Source: an uncultured Armatimonadetes bacterium | GTDB lineage: Bacteria > Armatimonadota > UBA5829 > DTJY01 | Direction of reading: 5' to 3' | Assembly (NCBI GenBank): GCA_963717145.1 | Contig: OY970325.1 | Span: 2,368,001 to 2,432,000, forward strand | Length of the DNA stretch: 64,000 nucleotides | Shown here: piece by piece, positions 30,986-53,494 of the stretch | Numbering within the stretch: position 1 is the stretch's first letter | How the letters are laid out: the number at the start of each line of letters is the position of its first letter | Program-made: the position numbers and the translations under genes | Notes under the pieces: model-generated | Told to the model about the DNA's origin: nothing | The model's input: only the letters and a program-made list of their open reading frames with translations | The model's database searches: none

Positions 30986-32400
30986 GCTTAAGTCGACCGA
31001 CAACGAATATCAAACGAATGAACGTATACCATCAGCGACGGGTTCATTCGTTTATTCGTTTGATATTCGTTGTCGGTGCTCTGGCGGTCTGCCTCCTCCT
31101 GGCCGGATGCTCGACCCATAGGAAGCCCGCGGAGACCCGCATCAAGTGGTGGGTCTTCCCGATGTGGAACGGCATCACCGGCACGGAAAAGAACGCCACC
31201 GCCGAGGACTGGCCGCGCCTTAAGATCAAGGAGTTCGAGAAGACGCACCCCGGCGTGAAGATCGACCTCGAAGTGCTCACCTGGCAGGGAGGCAGCCAGA
31301 AGCTCGACCTCTCCGTCCTGTCGGAGACCTATCCCGACATCTGCTACCTCGCCGCCGTCAACCTGCGCAAATACGCCGACCAGGGCGTCCTCGAGCCGAT
31401 CGATCCGTACCTGACCGACGCCGACCGCGCGGATGTCTACCCCAACGTCATGGACCTCTGCCGCTATCAGGACAACACCTACCTCTGGCCGTGGCTCTGC
31501 AACGCGCTCGTCATGGCGATCAACGTCGACATCTTCAAGGAGCGACACGTCGAGCATCTCATCCCCAAGCCGCCTGAGCGCTCGTGGACCTACGACCAGT
31601 TCATCGAGGCCGCGAAGGCATGCACCTTCGACCGGAACGGCGACGGCAAGACCGACGTCTACGGCTATGCGCTGTACGGCATCCCGCTGAGCGTCGAGTA
31701 CCAGATGCTCACCCTCGTACAGGGCTTCGGCGGGCAACTCTACAGCGCGGACGGGACGCAGTTCACGCTCAATTCTCCGGAGGGCGTCCAGGGGATGCAG
31801 TTCCTCGTCGATCTGCTCGATAAGCACAAGGTCGTGCCGCCCGGACCGGCGGGGACTCAATCCGGGCAGGTCGGCCAGATGTTCATGAACCAGGAGACCG
31901 CCACGATTTCGTCCGTCTCGGGTGTCATCAAGTCGATCAAGAACTCGGCGGCGCGCGGGGAGTTCCCGCTCTTCAATGCGATCCTCGTGCAGCCGCCTCA
32001 TCTGCCCGGGAAGAAGCCCGCGAGCCTGCTGTCGGTCGGCGGATACGTCGTCTTCAAGCAGGAGGACAAGCGCAGGCGGGACATGACCATGGAGTTCGCG
32101 CGATTCCTGACGAACAAGGAGAACGGGCGGGCGCTGTCCGTGATCGGGCAGCTTCCGGCGCGGAAGTCGGCGGGCGACATCTATCCCGGCGACGTGGACA
32201 TGGCCGTCGTGGCGGGACTGCTCCCGGTCGCACACGAGTATTTCACCGCCGCCGGGCCCGAGCTTGGCCAGGTGCTGAACAACATCTATCAGCAGATCTT
32301 CACTCACTCGAAGACGCCCGTTGAGGCGCTGAGTGATGCCGAGAAGCGAGCCAACGAGATCATCGCCCGCGAGCGCCTGGACAGAGGGTTGAAGCCATGA
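30982..32400 (+). CDS. Sugar ABC transporter substrate-binding lipoprotein
   Basis: Lipobox LLAGC, FEKTHPGVKI, YPDI, WTYDQF; upstream of two CUT1 permeases; GTGA-coupled start (ATG 31018 is an alternative). Confidence 0.9.
   Translation: MSLSRPTTNIKRMNVYHQRRVHSFIRLIFVVGALAVCLLLAGCSTHRKPAETRIKWWVFPMWNGITGTEKNATAEDWPRLKIKEFEKTHPGVKIDLEVLTWQGGSQKLDLSVLSETYPDICYLAAVNLRKYADQGVLEPIDPYLTDADRADVYPNVMDLCRYQDNTYLWPWLCNALVMAINVDIFKERHVEHLIPKPPERSWTYDQFIEAAKACTFDRNGDGKTDVYGYALYGIPLSVEYQMLTLVQGFGGQLYSADGTQFTLNSPEGVQGMQFLVDLLDKHKVVPPGPAGTQSGQVGQMFMNQETATISSVSGVIKSIKNSAARGEFPLFNAILVQPPHLPGKKPASLLSVGGYVVFKQEDKRRRDMTMEFARFLTNKENGRALSVIGQLPARKSAGDIYPGDVDMAVVAGLLPVAHEYFTAAGPELGQVLNNIYQQIFTHSKTPVEALSDAEKRANEIIARERLDRGLKP
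30996..31077. repeat. ACGAAT-motif inverted repeat (29-bp arms) inside the SBP signal-peptide region
   Basis: accgacaacgaatatcaaacgaatgaacg / cgtttattcgtttgatattcgttgtcggt. Confidence 0.85.
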
Positions 32401-46066: not shown

Positions 46067-47047
46067 TTACTCGTCGCCCGGCGGTGTAGGAGGCGCCTGA
46101 TCAGAAACCGGAGGCGGCGGACCTTCATCGCTCGGAGGAGTGATCACGGGCATCGGCATCTCGGGCTTCTTAGGGTCGATCTTATTGTCGATCTTGGCGG
46201 CATTCTTCACGCCAAGCAGCCAGTCCTGCCACTTCTCGCCGCGCTTCTGAACCATGATCTTGTCGACGAGTTCCTTGCGATCGGCGCCGGTAGCATCCTT
46301 GCCAAGCGCAGTCAACTTGATCAGGTGATAGCCATGGCTCGACTGCACTACGCCGCTCATCTCGCCGACTTTCAGCTTGAAGGCGGCTTCTTCGAACTTG
46401 GGATCCATGTAGTTCTTGCCGAAGAACCCGAGATCGCCACCCTTCTCCTTGTTTCCGGTGTCGTCGGAATACTTCTTTGCGGCCTCACCGAAGTCCAGGC
46501 CACCCTGAATCTCCTTGGCGATCTGCTCGATCTTGGCCTTGGATTCCTCTTCCTTCTTGGTCTTGTCAGCGGGGTCCTGCGTGTAGGGCACGCGGATCAG
46601 AATGTGGCTTGCCTTGATGAAGCCCGACAGGTCCTCGTCGGTCACCTTGATCTGCTTATCCAGAATGCCTTCCATCTGAAGCTGGAACTTCACTCTCGCG
46701 AAGTAGTGACTCGGAGTCATGCCGATACCACGGAGCGCCTCCTCGAAGGTCTGCCCCGGCGGTATTCGCGTCTTGATCTCGTCAAGCTTGGCGTTGATCT
46801 CTGCAACGGTGACCACGACGCCGGCTTTCCTGGCTTCCTGGCCCACGAGGCGCTGATCGAGCAGTTCCTCGAGTACCATCGAGGCGTTCCAGTCGAACAG
46901 GGTGTCTGCAAGCATCTGCTTGGTCACCTTCTCCCCATTAACTGTAGCCACGACGTCGGGTGTACCCTTCATCGTCGCTGCGAAAACAGGCAGAGCTGAA
47001 ATCAGTACTACGGTTAGTGCGAAGATAATAAGTCTTCTTGCGAGCAT
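46067..47047 (-). CDS. Parvulin-type peptidyl-prolyl isomerase / PrsA-SurA-like foldase
   Basis: VATVNGEKVT, ASHILI, FGEAAKKYSDD, GGDLGFF, FEEAAF, GYHLIK. Confidence 0.92.
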   Translation of the reverse strand: MLARRLIIFALTVVLISALPVFAATMKGTPDVVATVNGEKVTKQMLADTLFDWNASMVLEELLDQRLVGQEARKAGVVVTVAEINAKLDEIKTRIPPGQTFEEALRGIGMTPSHYFARVKFQLQMEGILDKQIKVTDEDLSGFIKASHILIRVPYTQDPADKTKKEEESKAKIEQIAKEIQGGLDFGEAAKKYSDDTGNKEKGGDLGFFGKNYMDPKFEEAAFKLKVGEMSGVVQSSHGYHLIKLTALGKDATGADRKELVDKIMVQKRGEKWQDWLLGVKNAAKIDNKIDPKKPEMPMPVITPPSDEGPPPPVSDQAPPTPPGDE

Positions 47048-47099
47048 ACGGTGTCTCCTTTCGAAGCGGAATCCCACATATATTACAACAATCGCCCTT

Positions 47100-48026
47100 T
47101 CAGGTCAATAACCCTTTTTCTTGCAGGCGCTCGACCTCCTCTCGTGTCGGCATGGAACGCTGCGCGCCGAGCCTGGTGACCGAGATCGCCGCCGCGCTGC
47201 AGGCAAACCCTGAAGCGGCCCGGATATCCATCCCGGATGAAAGTGCTACTCCCAACGCCCCGGTGAAGGCATCGCCCGCTGCGGTGGTATCGACGGCCTG
47301 GACCTTCGGCGCGGGTATGAACGTGTGCTCGCCCGCATCCACGACCAGAACACCCTTCGCTCCGAGCGTAAGTATGACGCTCTTCACGCCCATATCCACA
47401 AATCGCCTCACAACCGCCGGATCATCGGCCGGCTCATCGGCCTGCAGCCCGAGCAGATGCCTTGCCTCGGATTCATTGGGAAGCAGGACGTCCACCATCG
47501 CAAGCATATCCTTCGGAAGAGGACATGCCGGAGCGGGATTCAGGATCACTCGAACTCCCCGGTCGAATGCGAGCCGAACGGCGTGTTTCACCGTATCAAG
47601 CGGGACCTCGAGCTGGACGATGAGCGCATCGCACTCCGGGAGCACGTTCGCCGCACGGTCTACATCCCCCGGCGAGAGCGCTCCATTCGATCCGGGGGCG
47701 ACGGCGATCATGTTCTCCCCGCTGGAATCCACGAAAATCAGCGCCACTCCGGACGGCCTCTCGGGGTCTCGGACCACATATTCTGTTACGAGTCCTTCAC
47801 ATTCAAAGTTCCTGAGGGACGCGTCGCCGAAAACGTCGGATCCCACCCGAGCGACGAACACGACATCCGCGCCGAGCCGGGCCGCCGCGACGGCCTGGTT
47901 CGCGCCTTTCCCGCCGGGAACGGTGACGAACTCCCCGCCGATGACGGTCTCGCCCGGCATGGGCAGACGCCCGGTCTGCACCACCATATCGGTATTGCTC
48001 GACCCGACAACCATTATCTTGGACAC
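47100..48026 (-). CDS. rbsK: Ribokinase
   Basis: VVGSSNTD, PGGKGANQAVAAARLG, LNPAP, PNESE, VDTTAAGDAF. Confidence 0.95.
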   Translation of the reverse strand: MSKIMVVGSSNTDMVVQTGRLPMPGETVIGGEFVTVPGGKGANQAVAAARLGADVVFVARVGSDVFGDASLRNFECEGLVTEYVVRDPERPSGVALIFVDSSGENMIAVAPGSNGALSPGDVDRAANVLPECDALIVQLEVPLDTVKHAVRLAFDRGVRVILNPAPACPLPKDMLAMVDVLLPNESEARHLLGLQADEPADDPAVVRRFVDMGVKSVILTLGAKGVLVVDAGEHTFIPAPKVQAVDTTAAGDAFTGALGVALSSGMDIRAASGFACSAAAISVTRLGAQRSMPTREEVERLQEKGLLT

Positions 48027-48040
48027 TAGCTAACCCCTCC

Positions 48041-48445
48041 GGGAAACACGAATCTCACGAATAAACGAATATCGGGAAAAACCCCGGAACCAGCCTGTAC
48101 TCGGCCGCAGGCTTGGTGCAGCAACGATAGCTCATACTCACAAGTACACGTTACACGAATGCAGAGCGAATCCTCGGGAAACACGAATCTCACGAATAAA
48201 CGAATATCGGGAAAAACCCCGGAACCAGCCTGTACTCGGCCGCAGGCTTGGTGCAGCAACGATAGCTCATACTCACAAGTACACGTTACACGAATGCAGA
48301 GCGAATCCTCGGGAAGACCCAAAAACCAGCTCGTGCTCATCGGCAAGCTCCGTTCAACAGCGATAGCTCATACTCACAAGTTGACGGTACACGAATGCAG
48401 AGCAGATCCCTCTTGATTCGTCCGTTCGTGTGATTCGTGTTTCCC
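48041..48445 (+). repeat. 135-bp tandem units (two exact, one degenerate) plus one inverted ACGAAT-triplet motif
   Basis: Units start at 48041, 48176 and 48311; inverted motif at 48416-48445. Confidence 0.92.
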
Positions 48446-48451
48446 TCGCCT

Positions 48452-48862
48452 TTACAGGACGATGCGCTTGTATTCGACCCTCTTCTTGCCGAAGTTGACT
48501 AGGATTCCCAGGCGCAGGCCGCTGGCTTTCAGATAGGAGAAGACCTGTGCCTCAAACAGGTCACTCAGTTCAGAAACAGCTTTCAACTCGACGATGATCG
48601 TTCCATCCACCACTATGTCGAGGCGGTAGTCGCCAACCTTGTCTCCCCTGTAATGGATTTCGATCGGCTTCTGACATTCGAAAGGGATTCCCAGATCCTC
48701 AAGCTCCCTGCATAGAACTCGCTCATAGACACTCTCCCCAAAGCCGGGACCCAATTCGTTGTGAACCGCAAACACAGCCGACATGAGTCGGTAAGACAGC
48801 TCAGCGTACAAGACGCGGTTCCCCAACTCAGATTGTTCCGTCTCCAGTCCCATTCGTGTCAT
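48452..48862 (-). CDS. GxxExxY protein (PD-(D/E)XK nuclease superfamily)
   Basis: VHNELGPGFGESVYE, RLDIVVDG.IIVELK, QVFSYLKASG...GILVNFG; GGAGAGG RBS supplied by the last repeat unit. Confidence 0.95.
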   Translation of the reverse strand: MTRMGLETEQSELGNRVLYAELSYRLMSAVFAVHNELGPGFGESVYERVLCRELEDLGIPFECQKPIEIHYRGDKVGDYRLDIVVDGTIIVELKAVSELSDLFEAQVFSYLKASGLRLGILVNFGKKRVEYKRIVL

Positions 48863-49181
48863 TCCCTCTCCATTCGTGTGCCGGTACCTTGAGAGCATGA
48901 GTTCCCGCAGCCGCAACGCCGGTTTTCCCCATACATTCGTCCATTCGTCTGATTCGTGTTTCCCTCTCCATTCGTGTGCCGGTACCTTGAGAGCATGAGT
49001 TCCCGCAGCCGCAACGCCGGTTTTCCCCATACATTCGTCCATTCGTCCGATTCGTGTTTCCCTCTCAATTCGTGTGCCGGTACCTTGAGAGCATGAGCCA
49101 TCGCCTGATAGCATGAGTTCCCGCGGTCCACAACGCCGGTTTTCCCCATACATTCGTCCATTCGTCTGATTCGTGTTTCCC
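48862..49181 (-). repeat. Three tandem ~98-bp units (outermost has a ~20-nt insertion)
   Basis: Period 98 (48870, 48968, 49066); on the minus strand each unit starts gggaaacacgaatc.gacgaatggacgaat. Confidence 0.92.
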
Positions 49182-49186
49182 CGGGT

Positions 49187-51559
49187 CTACGGCCAGGCTT
49201 CGTCCTCGCCGGCCAGTTCCTCGATGCGCGCCTCCCGCGAATAGACTCGTACCCGTGTCTGATCGGAGGCCGGGACCGTCACCTCGCCCACCATCCCGAG
49301 CTTCGAATGTCGCACCGTGAGCGTCTGATCCCGCATCGACGGGTTCACGAGCGTAAGCACCAGGTCGTCGTCCACCTCCTCGGTCGACTCGATCCATGAG
49401 CTGTCGAACACGTAGACCTCGCGGCTGTCCGCATCTATGACGATGTCACCGAACCCGTGGGTATACATGTCCGCGTAGAGTATCAGCCCGGCGCACCACG
49501 AATGTGCGAGCTGGAGCATCGAGCCCTTCGCGTGCGTCCAGTCGGTGTGGAACCACTGCTCCGTGATCATTCCCTTCCGCGCGTTGAAATCGCCGTCCGA
49601 GCGCGCGATGAACTGGTGGAAGCAAGCGAGATGATCCGCCGCGCGGCTGAGATAGTATGTGTCGCCCGTGTACTGCCACAAGCGGAGAAGCTCCGGGTGG
49701 CAGATCAGCCCGTAGTTGTGCAGGTGATTGTTCGATGGAGACGCAATGTCGGCGCCGAGCGTGCGGAAGTCGTACTTCCCGAGGATCGTGTCGTCCGCGA
49801 ACTGGGTGTTGTAGGTCCAGCGGAACGTCGCCACAAGGTCCGCCGCGTACTGCGCGAGTTCGAGCCACTTCTCATCCTGAGTCGCCTCGTAGAGATGAAC
49901 GCAGGCGATCAGCGCATTGTACGCGTCCTCAGAAGTCGGTGTGAGGTGGACATCCTCCGGTGCGCCATAGATGTACTCGTCCTCGATGAACCGCTTGTAG
50001 TACTCTCCCGCCTTGATCGCCGCGTCCCGATACGCGGTGTTGCCGGAATACTTCGCGCCCGCCAGGAGCGCCGGGATCCACATGATGCCGCCCGCGCCGT
50101 CCCATTCCTCGCACTGCCCGCTGTTGATGTTGTAGTACGAGCCGAAGTTCCCATCCTCGCGCTGGACCTTCAGGGCGAACTCGAGGTTCTTCTTCGCCGC
50201 CTCGGCCCAGTTGGGATGTGCCGCCGCTCCACCACCCTGTAGGGGCGTGCCTTGTGCCGCCTGAGACACCTCTGCGGGCGGCACAAGGCGCGCCCCTACA
50301 GGTGTCCCCTTCGCATATTCGAGCGCCTGGAAGTAGAACCAAGTCGCCTCGCTGACCGTCCGCGCCTGAATCCACTCCGGCTTGGGGTTCCAGCCGGTGC
50401 CCCAGCCGTTCTCCTGCGTCCACTCCGGATAGAAGAGCCCGCACGGAGAGATCCCCTCGTCCGCGATCTTGTTGAGCACCATCAATCCGGCTTCCGTGTA
50501 ATCTGTGTTCTGTACCCTCTCCCCGTACTTCCAGAGCGCGAAGGCATACGGAGCGCCGCTCACCCACGCGACGTGCATATGCGGGCGATCGACCTGCCCG
50601 GCCCCCTTGCCGAAGTACTTGTCGAACGCGCAGGTCTCGTAGAGCGCCTTCTGCTCCGGGTCATAGTGCCAGCGATGGAGTCCGTACGCCAGAAGCTCCT
50701 CGGCCTCCTCCATCGACACCCACGGGTTCGTCTCGTCCTCGGATGCATTGTAGATGTCGCGGATCAGGCCGTCGTACGCGTGGATGTCGCGCTCGTCGAC
50801 CATCGTGCTGAACGCGATCTGGACCGCTTCCCTGGGCATGACCGTCACGTCGAGGGCCTCGGGCGCGTTGGCATCCTCGCGGATAAAGCTGTATTTGACG
50901 GGCTCCTCCACGTAGGGGTAGTTGAGCATCAGGAACGTGCCGCTCGAATCGCCCCGGAATCCGACGCCGCTGTCGCCGTGGCTGAAGGGTTCGCGCGTCG
51001 CCAGACAAGTGGTCAGGTTGTCCGTCCAGCAGAAGACCGACGGGCAGGACGAGCGATCGGACCGGAACGCCCAGTAGTTCGAGACGAACTCATTGGGGTT
51101 GCCGCCCTCGAATGCGTATCGAGGATAACGTCGGACGCAACTCTCCGGGCGATTGTGCTTGTAGAACATCGCCGGCACCATCCACCTCGGGACGCCGGAA
51201 TCCGGCACGCGGAAGGCGATATGGAATCCGCACTCGATCGGATCCTCGCCGAGGTACGCGATCTGGATGCGCCATTCGAGCCGCTCGGCCATGTCTCCAG
51301 CGGGAACGATCCGCCCCTGGATCTGCCAGTCGTCCATCCCGGGGAACTCGCCGGTGAACTCCGCCATATCACCGGCGGACGCGCGCTTAATCGCCGCAGG
51401 TACCCGCTGGTCGCCGATGCGGATTGAGAGGAAGCTCTCCCCGCGCAACGCCGGGACCTCGCCCGTCTCGCGCTGATGGTAAATATTCGGGATGAGGGAA
51501 TCGCCCGGACCGGACTCGAAAGCAAGCTTGGTGTTACCGTGGATGAGGGTGGAATCCAT
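49187..51559 (-). CDS. Hypothetical protein, putative (alpha/alpha)6-barrel carbohydrate-processing enzyme
   Basis: 790 aa; beta-rich N-part; helical C-part (YGAPED, SEDAY, LYEATQDEKWL..A, LWQYTGD.YYL.RA); co-oriented with rbsK. Confidence 0.65.
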   Translation of the reverse strand: MDSTLIHGNTKLAFESGPGDSLIPNIYHQRETGEVPALRGESFLSIRIGDQRVPAAIKRASAGDMAEFTGEFPGMDDWQIQGRIVPAGDMAERLEWRIQIAYLGEDPIECGFHIAFRVPDSGVPRWMVPAMFYKHNRPESCVRRYPRYAFEGGNPNEFVSNYWAFRSDRSSCPSVFCWTDNLTTCLATREPFSHGDSGVGFRGDSSGTFLMLNYPYVEEPVKYSFIREDANAPEALDVTVMPREAVQIAFSTMVDERDIHAYDGLIRDIYNASEDETNPWVSMEEAEELLAYGLHRWHYDPEQKALYETCAFDKYFGKGAGQVDRPHMHVAWVSGAPYAFALWKYGERVQNTDYTEAGLMVLNKIADEGISPCGLFYPEWTQENGWGTGWNPKPEWIQARTVSEATWFYFQALEYAKGTPVGARLVPPAEVSQAAQGTPLQGGGAAAHPNWAEAAKKNLEFALKVQREDGNFGSYYNINSGQCEEWDGAGGIMWIPALLAGAKYSGNTAYRDAAIKAGEYYKRFIEDEYIYGAPEDVHLTPTSEDAYNALIACVHLYEATQDEKWLELAQYAADLVATFRWTYNTQFADDTILGKYDFRTLGADIASPSNNHLHNYGLICHPELLRLWQYTGDTYYLSRAADHLACFHQFIARSDGDFNARKGMITEQWFHTDWTHAKGSMLQLAHSWCAGLILYADMYTHGFGDIVIDADSREVYVFDSSWIESTEEVDDDLVLTLVNPSMRDQTLTVRHSKLGMVGEVTVPASDQTRVRVYSREARIEELAGEDEAWP
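50236..50302. repeat. GTAG REP doublet inserted in frame in the CDS
   Basis: cctgtaggggcgtgccttgtgccgcc / ggcggcacaaggcgcgcccctacagg (26-bp arms, 1 mismatch). Confidence 0.88.
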
Positions 51560-51584
51560 GAAAAGGCCTCCTTGCTGCTTGAGG

Positions 51585-51613
51585 ATTATACCGCCGGGAG
51601 TACCCTCTGTCAA
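51585..51613 (-). promoter_or_regulatory. Consensus sigma70 promoter
   Basis: TTGACA-17 nt-TATAAT on the minus strand. Confidence 0.75.
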
Positions 51614-53321: not shown

Positions 53322-53494
53322 TGGCCGTGCCTCAGTGCCGGCCCACCACGTGTCGCGACATGGCCGGCACTGAGGCACGGCCACTGCAGTGAGGAACGAT
53401 GGGGATACCCGAGAAACGGCTGAAGACATGGCCGGCACAGAGGCACGGCCACTACAGTGAGGAACGATGGGAATACCAGAGAAGCGGCTGAAGA
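53318..53494. repeat. GTAGTGGCCGTGCC REP doublet plus a 68-bp tandem duplication including the kdpE RBS and first codons
   Basis: Units start at 53357 and 53425. Confidence 0.88.

Follow-up and report, generated by a model that had tools for sequence, protein, structure and literature searches.

Short dispersed palindromic and tandem-word repeats fill the intergenic space of many bacteria, and outside the repetitive extragenic palindromic (REP) repeats and their REP-associated tyrosine transposases (RAYTs) we know of no enzyme for them. REP repeats are short, imperfectly palindromic hairpins whose conserved head is of the GTAG type. The BOX elements of Streptococcus pneumoniae and the bacterial interspersed mosaic elements (BIMEs) of enterobacteria are modular and intergenic, with a repeated module of variable copy number, and the enzyme that mobilises BOX is unknown. 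Short tandemly repeated repetitive (STRR) sequences of cyanobacteria consist of words of ~7 nt in tandem, are likewise intergenic, sometimes form hairpins, and have no known function. Here we describe an element at 48041-49181 of a 64,000-nt stretch of DNA (the window; contig OY970325.1, positions 2,368,001 to 2,432,000) from an uncultured Armatimonadetes bacterium, in which a 136-aa gene of the GxxExxY family is enclosed by inverted arrays of repeat units. The pairing of GxxExxY genes with repeats is widespread, and no description of it was found in the searchable literature, which leaves aside supplements and subscription journals.

REP doublets (REPINs) have been described together with their RAYT genes (Bertels & Rainey 2011, PMC3116915), and among known systems they are the nearest counterpart in logic. 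The likeness with REP/RAYT systems in general lies in a gene present once with inverted copies of its own repeat on either side, as is also found at this locus, in gene-less inverted doublets that are far more numerous and sit in intergenic space and operon junctions, and in one repeat family per gene lineage with no evident target duplication and largely vertical inheritance. A RAYT is a HUH Y1 (IS200/IS605-type) transposase, whereas PF13366 is the only Pfam match of the protein here; REP repeats are ~25-nt GTAG-headed hairpins, whereas here phased words of 6-8 nt stand in units of 98-135 bp; and, unlike REPINs, the arms here do not maintain pairing with each other, the head consists of three direct words and no near-identical copy population exists. 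Membership in the REP/REPIN-RAYT group thus fails on the enzyme, the type of repeat and the lack of near-identical copies, but the analogy of layout, which the initial annotation of this DNA had drawn, stands: it extends to all three GxxExxY genes of the same genome and, in a survey of 103 homologues, to 60, where controls gave 2 of 187.

The window comes from a genome (G000) that is one closed contig of 5.37 Mb. Between 44.6 and 51.6 kb of the window every gene is on the minus strand, and the element lies there between a glycosidase-like gene and rbsK, with the following parts.

49187-51613, minus strand: glycosidase-like gene, 808 aa, the upstream flank, with a weak GH127-like match (PF07944, 21.7 bits, below the 24.9 cut-off)
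49063-49181, minus strand: outer upstream unit, 119 bp, its head GGGAAACACGAATCAGACGAATGGACGAAT being the element end at 49181
48965-49062, minus strand: middle upstream unit, 98 bp
48867-48964, minus strand: inner upstream unit, 98 bp
48452-48862, minus strand: GxxExxY / PDDEXK_3 nuclease-fold gene, 136 aa, the only cargo (PF13366, TIGR04256)
48416-48445, minus strand: lone head of 30 nt with three words, directly after the stop codon of the nuclease gene
48310-48410, plus strand: degenerate inner downstream unit, without the three-word head, tail blocks kept
48175-48309, plus strand: downstream unit 2, 135 bp, 100% identical to unit 1
48040-48174, plus strand: downstream unit 1, 135 bp
47100-48026, minus strand: rbsK (PfkB ribokinase family), 308 aa, the downstream flank (PF00294, E 2.2e-67)

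The two arms are inverted, with three units of 98-119 bp upstream of the nuclease gene and three units of 101-135 bp downstream of it. Unit heads face outward and tails inward in both arms, and Tandem Repeats Finder and a repeat finder agree on the layout. The inward-pointing arrays of the initial annotation (three units of ~98 bp upstream; two exact 135-bp units and one degenerate unit downstream) are confirmed. The lone head at 48416-48445 is oriented as the upstream array and inverted with respect to the downstream heads, and is the seventh head of the locus. Each unit consists, in order, of a head, a G-rich stretch, a variable middle and a tail. The head reads GGGAAACACGAAT-N3-ACGAAT-N2-ACGAAT, so that every head holds three ACGAAT words at spacings of 9 and 8 nt, and the conserved tail (..TCATGCTCTCAAGGTACCGG-ACACGAATGG) closes with a fourth ACACGAAT word. 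The shared block order given in the initial annotation is visible in alignments of the six units and of 36 genomic units. The pattern GGGAAACACGAAT-N3-ACGAA-N3-ACGAAT occurs six times in the window against none expected (100 shuffles). The exact 135-bp duplicate of the assembly indicates that the arrays are still altered by local duplication.

The element fits closely between its neighbours. The stop codon (TAG) of the glycosidase-like gene is 5 nt from one end, the tail of the inner upstream unit (ACACGAATGGAGAGGGA) runs on into the nuclease gene's ribosome-binding region and start codon (ATG), and outside the end at 48041 stand GGAGG and then the GTG start of rbsK. Deleting 48041-49181 in silico leaves the stop, 21 nt and GTG, with GGAGG ahead of the rbsK start, and the claim that removal restores a tidy stop, ribosome-binding site and start was thus borne out. 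An Rfam scan of 47000-50000 at E values up to 1 gave no match. Between 47800 and 49400, consensus scans found 2 promoter and 3 terminator sites, where shuffled sequence has 0.6 and 1.3, and their placement is untelling. A reading of the units as a CsrA sponge, by way of AUGGA motifs, was dropped, as the downstream units have no GGA at those positions. Elsewhere in the window, a 68-bp unit stands in two tandem copies, 92% alike, at 53357-53494.

Related genomes show the same junction with and without the element. Thirty were searched with the glycosidase-like flanking protein, which has orthologues in G001, G007, G009 and G010, and four local proteins were mapped on the returned loci. The search for empty sites, a check proposed earlier, gave three: in G007, G009 and G010, which are three other genera of the same family, rbsK adjoins the glycosidase-like gene, with stop and start overlapping in G010 and 10-40 nt apart in G007 and G009, and no trace of heads was seen at the junction in any of them. 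In G001, whose flanking proteins are ~81% identical, the same element with fewer units occupies the same site. It begins 3 nt past the stop codon with GGGGAAACACGAAC... and closes with ...GTGTTCCC right ahead of the AGGAG and GTG of rbsK, and the element ends are sharp and identically placed in the two genomes. The GxxExxY orthologue of G001 (67% identical) sits there with its units, so that no relative was seen to carry the gene at this site without its repeats.

By this comparison, 48041-49181 is one inserted element in a translationally tight operon junction. Since three genera have the junction empty and G001 has it occupied, the entry of the element predates, on the same grounds, the split of the G000 genus and one sister genus, and the unit arrays are judged to have changed in number since that split. 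What stands of the proposed transposase-free element is therefore the inserted block itself, at a junction that is empty in three genera. The direct repeat CCGGG, which had been put forward as a target duplication, did not hold up: it is partly the element's own terminal GGG/CCC, and with no flanking repeat at 11 other inverted pairs it is not a target-site duplication. None was detected over the 12 loci inspected.

The gene at 48452-48862 is the only ORF (open reading frame) with a family match inside the block, in agreement with the initial annotation, and it matches PF13366 (E 9.2e-40; 136.1 bits, cut-off 22; positions 2-117 of a 117-position model) and TIGR04256 (E 8e-42; 142.3 bits, cut-off 35; positions 1-116 of 116). 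Across 19 aligned homologues there is no variation at G40, E43, Y46, E92 or K94, and at least 90% of the sequences share D82. An AlphaFold model of the protein has a mean predicted local distance difference test (pLDDT) score of 93.2, and the nearest solved folds by Foldseek are Cas4 SSO0001, lambda exonuclease, MGME1 and Hjc, the top match being 4ic1 (SSO0001 Cas4; E 4.3e-4, template modelling (TM) score 0.52-0.55). A search of solved structures with the 19-sequence profile returned a single chance-level match (E 0.56) and no sequence-level relative. The conserved motif, the catalytic residues and the predicted fold together indicate a small PD-(D/E)XK nuclease that is probably catalytically active. 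It shares the PD-(D/E)XK core with Cas4, lambda exonuclease, MGME1 and Hjc but differs from them in its length of only 136 aa, in having no sequence-level match to any solved chain and in a context unrelated to clustered regularly interspaced short palindromic repeat (CRISPR) or recombination operons. Between G000 and G001 the proportions of nonsynonymous and synonymous differences (pN and pS) are 0.22 and 0.80 for the nuclease gene, and 0.11 and 0.53 for rbsK. On these values the nuclease gene is under purifying selection, and synonymous sites are near saturation between the two genera.

The units belong to a family that is dispersed through the genome. An nhmmer search of G000 with a profile of the six units gave 41 matches at ~20 loci, and a GxxExxY gene is enclosed at only one of these, the copy in the window. 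Ten further loci are inverted pairs or small arrays, head-out and tail-in, whose GGGAAAC ends are sharp. Lengths are 246-421 bp at nine of these loci, and the tenth is a 69-bp pair that consists of heads only. Between loci, unit identity is 0.86 in the head, 0.39 in the middle and 0.68 in the tail. G001 has 18 occurrences of the head pattern and G006 has one, whereas G007, G009 and G010 have none. Neither within the copies examined nor next to them was a transposase of any known family found. In this lineage the family appears old and largely static, and by the between-locus identities the words are conserved far beyond neutral expectation. With synonymous sites near saturation, unit middles close to random and heads conserved, we infer that selection, or copy correction driven by the nuclease, preserves the words and that they do not reflect recent spread.

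One locus encloses other genes. At 3409598-3413209 of the G000 contig (C1; also listed as L139), a plus-strand unit and a minus-strand unit 3.6 kb apart enclose genes of 246 aa and 711 aa; the orthologous site in G001 has a single unit with the two flanking genes adjacent, which indicates DNA gained or lost at the centre of an element. By eye, in place of a family-library search, neither ORF has the look of a transposase.

Several observations concern the outer flanks of the heads. Outward promoter-like sequences (ATTATAGCA/ATTATATCA) ~9 nt outside the head were considered as part of the element and set aside, being present at 3 of 41 heads only; ATTATAGCA or ATTATATCA lies outside the heads at 2891873, 3466203 and 4871564 of G000:C1. 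GGAGTG and GTGTCAAT motifs recur beside three other heads and may be neighbouring repeats. At 2091911, 3178069 and 3466488 of the same contig the outer flank ends in TA, which gives TAG with the first G of the element, and a stop-like triplet, taken without regard to reading frame, stands no more than 10 nt from many other heads.

The gene-less relative that had been reported near 30996 is in part confirmed. There is a real 85-bp palindrome at 30994-31078, between two genes and with three ACGAAT-type words per arm, but it belongs to a different, shorter family (CCGACAACGAAT... frame) that shares the ACGAAT word and is without the unit body. This short CCGACAACGAAT family has 6 loci in the genome.

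3271711, 3854209 and 4041185: arm pairs
1767080, 2399046 and 3321805: single arms

The association of GxxExxY genes with repeats is not peculiar to this locus. G000 has two further GxxExxY genes, each between different inverted word arrays, so that the layout holds for all three in the genome. One is flanked by perfect 17-nt inverted repeats with CAGGAAG-type words and the other by 22-nt inverted repeats with ACACAGAA-type words, and both types of word are also dispersed as gene-less palindromes, often nested. Some of these palindromes in G000:C1 are mosaics of nested word arrays (e.g. 425590-425840, 427080-427310, 1352490-1352730 and 4874680-4874970), with outer ACACAGAA-type or ACGGAT-type words around inner CAGGAAG-type words and sometimes a third array of AATGGG-type or TTAGAC-type at the centre. 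TIGR04256 matches occur in 14 of 31 related genomes, in 0-6 copies each.

A survey of the flanks of GxxExxY genes, together with the co-variation of protein and repeat, had been proposed in the initial annotation, and both gave positive results. To the loci from relatives were added 80 from many phyla, found with a 5-sequence sub-alignment and representing one protein subfamily (GPGFEEVF-type), the full 19-sequence alignment being too divergent for the purpose. Fragmentary loci L028, L029 and L035 were left out, L042 was merged with L044, and 2 of 105 loci were dropped for short flanks. At a threshold score of 30 or higher, 60 of 103 GxxExxY genes are flanked by inverted repeats, whereas among 187 control positions displaced by 850 bp in the same loci 2 are. 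Of the 120 arms, 89 contain some 5-mer three or more times, and the intervals between words peak at 8, 9 and 10 nt (48, 61 and 27 intervals). Protein identity correlates with shared arm 6-mers (Mantel r 0.63, n=60, none of 2000 permutations as high), and also among the relatives only, where paralogues of one genome have different words (r 0.28, n=18, 2 of 2000). The gene is co-oriented with its upstream neighbour at 83 of 90 loci and with its downstream neighbour at 70 of 83, counts that fit expression by operon read-through. Taken over the surveyed loci, GxxExxY genes of many phyla are seen to sit between inverted arrays of words phased at 8-10 nt, with words specific to the lineage and usually in the sense orientation in operons. 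In the GPGFEEVF-type subfamily (L045-L124, many phyla) the arms nearly always open with GTCTGAAC, followed by (A/C)TGATT-type words; GC-rich relatives have TGAAC/TGAAT at the same position of the arm and then CGCTGA- or CGCGGA-type words, and the terminal TGAAC is conserved across arms while the words shift.

Inverted arms could act as paired hairpins or as arrays of sites in DNA, and the substitution pattern bears on the choice. Arms that function by pairing would be expected to carry compensated mismatches, or G-U mismatches on the strand that functions, and the mismatches here fit neither expectation. Across 60 loci, the mismatches between arms comprise 305 transversions and 164 transitions. 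Mismatches of the G-T type number 93 on the sense and 71 on the antisense strand (p=0.10), and by locus 23 against 22. In 11 family-A pairs the heads of partner arms agree at 265 of 275 word positions and 31 of 55 spacer positions, and the spacer agreement is no better than that of heads that are not partners (0.58). The middles of opposite arms in the window element are 13-42% identical. Single units have no excess folding stability over shuffles (mean z +0.7 and +0.5), and a consensus RNA fold (alifold) of 36 units shows scattered pairs only, on either strand. A structured RNA per unit was accordingly dropped as a reading, there being neither a consensus fold nor excess stability. With words conserved, spacers unmatched between arms and no G-U strand bias, the arms are predicted to be protein-binding DNA words; the evidence favours inverted arrays of such words over hairpin RNA. 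In this the arms would be closer to complex transposons, whose ends hold multiple sites, than to hairpins.

Compared with other short repeats, the element shares some features with each and differs in others. Like a miniature inverted-repeat transposable element (MITE) with a parent insertion sequence, the family is short, non-coding and dispersed, with terminal inverted repeats and one longer gene-bearing copy; however, target-site duplications are absent in 11 pairs, the only gene-bearing copy encodes GxxExxY and no transposase, and the ends are multi-word arrays. With BOX and BIME it has in common a modular build, a tandemly repeated module, variable copy number and an intergenic position, but the sequences are unrelated, one copy here holds a cognate gene and the modules consist of short words in phase. 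As in STRR sequences, short words are tandemly repeated in intergenic DNA; here, in contrast, they are spaced by 8-10 nt, stand in inverted arms and are tied to GxxExxY, and no link of STRR to a gene was found in the searchable literature, where STRR turned up in fingerprinting uses only. The intervening sequences of 23S rRNA lie in an rRNA helix, are removed from the rRNA through a stem of their inverted ends and can carry an S23p / four-helix-bundle ORF, and they resemble the present element in that a small ORF is enclosed by inverted repeats in sense orientation within a transcribed region. They differ in that the site here is a junction of protein genes, the fold of the protein is another one, arm pairing is not maintained and no maintained RNA stem was found.

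These features may point to the GxxExxY protein as a trans-acting nuclease of its own repeat family, a proposal to which we give about even credence. The protein would recognise, in DNA and sequence-specifically, the phased words of its family, with several copies to each arm, and would not recognise hairpins; it would cut at or beside the arms, joining being left to host repair or replication. A single-copy GxxExxY nuclease would then serve its repeat family as a RAYT serves REPINs. Spread, copy correction or a combination of the two could result, of which this lineage shows only maintenance and local duplication within the arrays. Action of the nuclease on the repeats is what we infer. Of the cognate relationship proposed in the initial annotation, the part that stands is the gene flanked by its own repeat family with gene-less copies dispersed, while for mobilisation or amplification of the repeats no evidence was obtained.

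Several points weigh against this proposal. PD-(D/E)XK nucleases cut DNA and are not known to join it, so that the protein is not a complete transposase. In the searchable literature the function of the GxxExxY family is given as "unknown" in a 2012 survey of PD-(D/E)XK families, and the other mentions are incidental. Units at different loci are at most 80% alike (best between-locus identity 0.80), with no near-identical copy populations, and no flanking direct repeat or target-site duplication was seen in the 11 other inverted pairs inspected. Of 12 loci in G001, 7 have flanks that place them at sites where a unit is present in G000 too, and the orthologous elements align; no movement is thus shown since the two genera split. 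The G001 orthologue (L005:4222-4580) is split by a frameshift near residue 108 while 18 heads persist in that genome; the split could mark a pseudogene or, as the genome is in 100 contigs, an error of assembly. In the survey, 43 of the 103 genes score below 30 for flanking repeats, and the Mantel r of 0.63 pools two differently sampled sets. Finally, G004 has 8 C-type and 6 B-type word matches, and no GxxExxY gene (TIGR04256) was found in its 97%-complete assembly. Strict co-occurrence of gene and repeat was therefore rejected, and repeats can persist without the gene, unless the gene of G004 was left unassembled.

Other explanations read the same features differently. The palindromic repeats could have come first, with the GxxExxY gene as a selfish passenger settling at their centres: a break at the centre of an element, made by the nuclease or some other activity, would be repaired from a gene-bearing copy through homology of the arms, which brings the gene in, and other DNA could be captured at such a break. 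PD-(D/E)XK homing endonucleases exist (e.g. I-Ssp6803I), the gene is always at the exact centre of the arms, and the nesting of gene-less elements, where C-type or other outer arms surround B-type arms and these in turn contain more word arrays, fits centres as preferred points of entry, as do the two ordinary genes between units at 3409598-3413209, where G001 has one unit and no such genes. Such capture is nevertheless rather unlikely, since a single gene-bearing copy exists in each of the three G000 word families, G001 has the gene at the same locus and no spread of the gene among copies is seen; it also leaves the arrival of the arms at new sites such as the empty junction unexplained, and it does not by itself predict the co-variation of words and proteins. 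The conservation of heads at orthologous loci across two genera, with neutral sites near saturation, the purifying selection on the nuclease gene and the lack of any sign of recent transposition would also suit a domesticated host factor that binds or cuts DNA, for which the arrays are chromosomal sites (in operon insulation, nucleoid organisation or defence, for example) and mobility is ancestral or irrelevant. Dispensable selfish DNA is a better fit to the patchy distribution of the gene (14 of 31 related genomes), its copy number of 0 to 6 per genome, the junction without the element in three genera and the frameshifted orthologue in G001, and we hold a host-level function to be unlikely.

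The arms could in principle also act in RNA, in the manner of a 23S rRNA intervening sequence, by pairing into a stem around the ORF in the operon transcript that RNase III or the encoded protein processes, the gene-less copies then being mRNA hairpins. Co-orientation of the gene with both neighbours at 55 of 70 loci and the position of elements in operon junctions just past stop codons are what such a cassette would show. It appears improbable given the dominance of transversions and lack of a sense-strand excess of G-U-compatible mismatches, the spacers of partner arms, which are no more alike than those of non-partners, the arm middles of the window element, only 13-42% identical, and the lack of excess folding energy, of an alifold consensus and of any Rfam match. 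An assembly artefact or chance repeat is scarcely credible: exact 135-bp tandem copies are of the type that assemblers can miscount, but the genome is one 5.37-Mb contig, the independent genome G001 has the same element and units at the same site, and 41 units occur genome-wide with a chance expectation of 0 for the head pattern.

The proposal of a trans-acting nuclease can be carried further, on a more tentative footing that we hold at less than even confidence. GxxExxY proteins would then be the trans-acting enzymes of a cross-phylum, so far undescribed superfamily of prokaryotic repeats, each lineage reading its own phased word and cutting beside its arrays, and would create, maintain or correct hundreds of intergenic palindromic elements, occasionally bringing genes into their centres. 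The window offers a test case in a closed genome, with unusually sharply defined heads and with one orthologous occupied site and three empty sites. Its arms are long tripartite units in tandem arrays and not bare words, so that head, tail and middle are separable, and it adds the comparison of words with spacers, the wobble test and the counter-example genome G004. If the proposal is true, an enzyme would be named for a large class of orphan repeats, long-known orphan repeats of STRR and mosaic type would be explained and a family of many phyla would gain a function. It would also define an element that moves or maintains itself by means of a nuclease, with no transposase. The family would in that case provide a natural set of small proteins that read different words of 6-8 nt, of interest for the rules of DNA recognition, with possibly a simple protein-to-word recognition code of one phased word per protein lineage.

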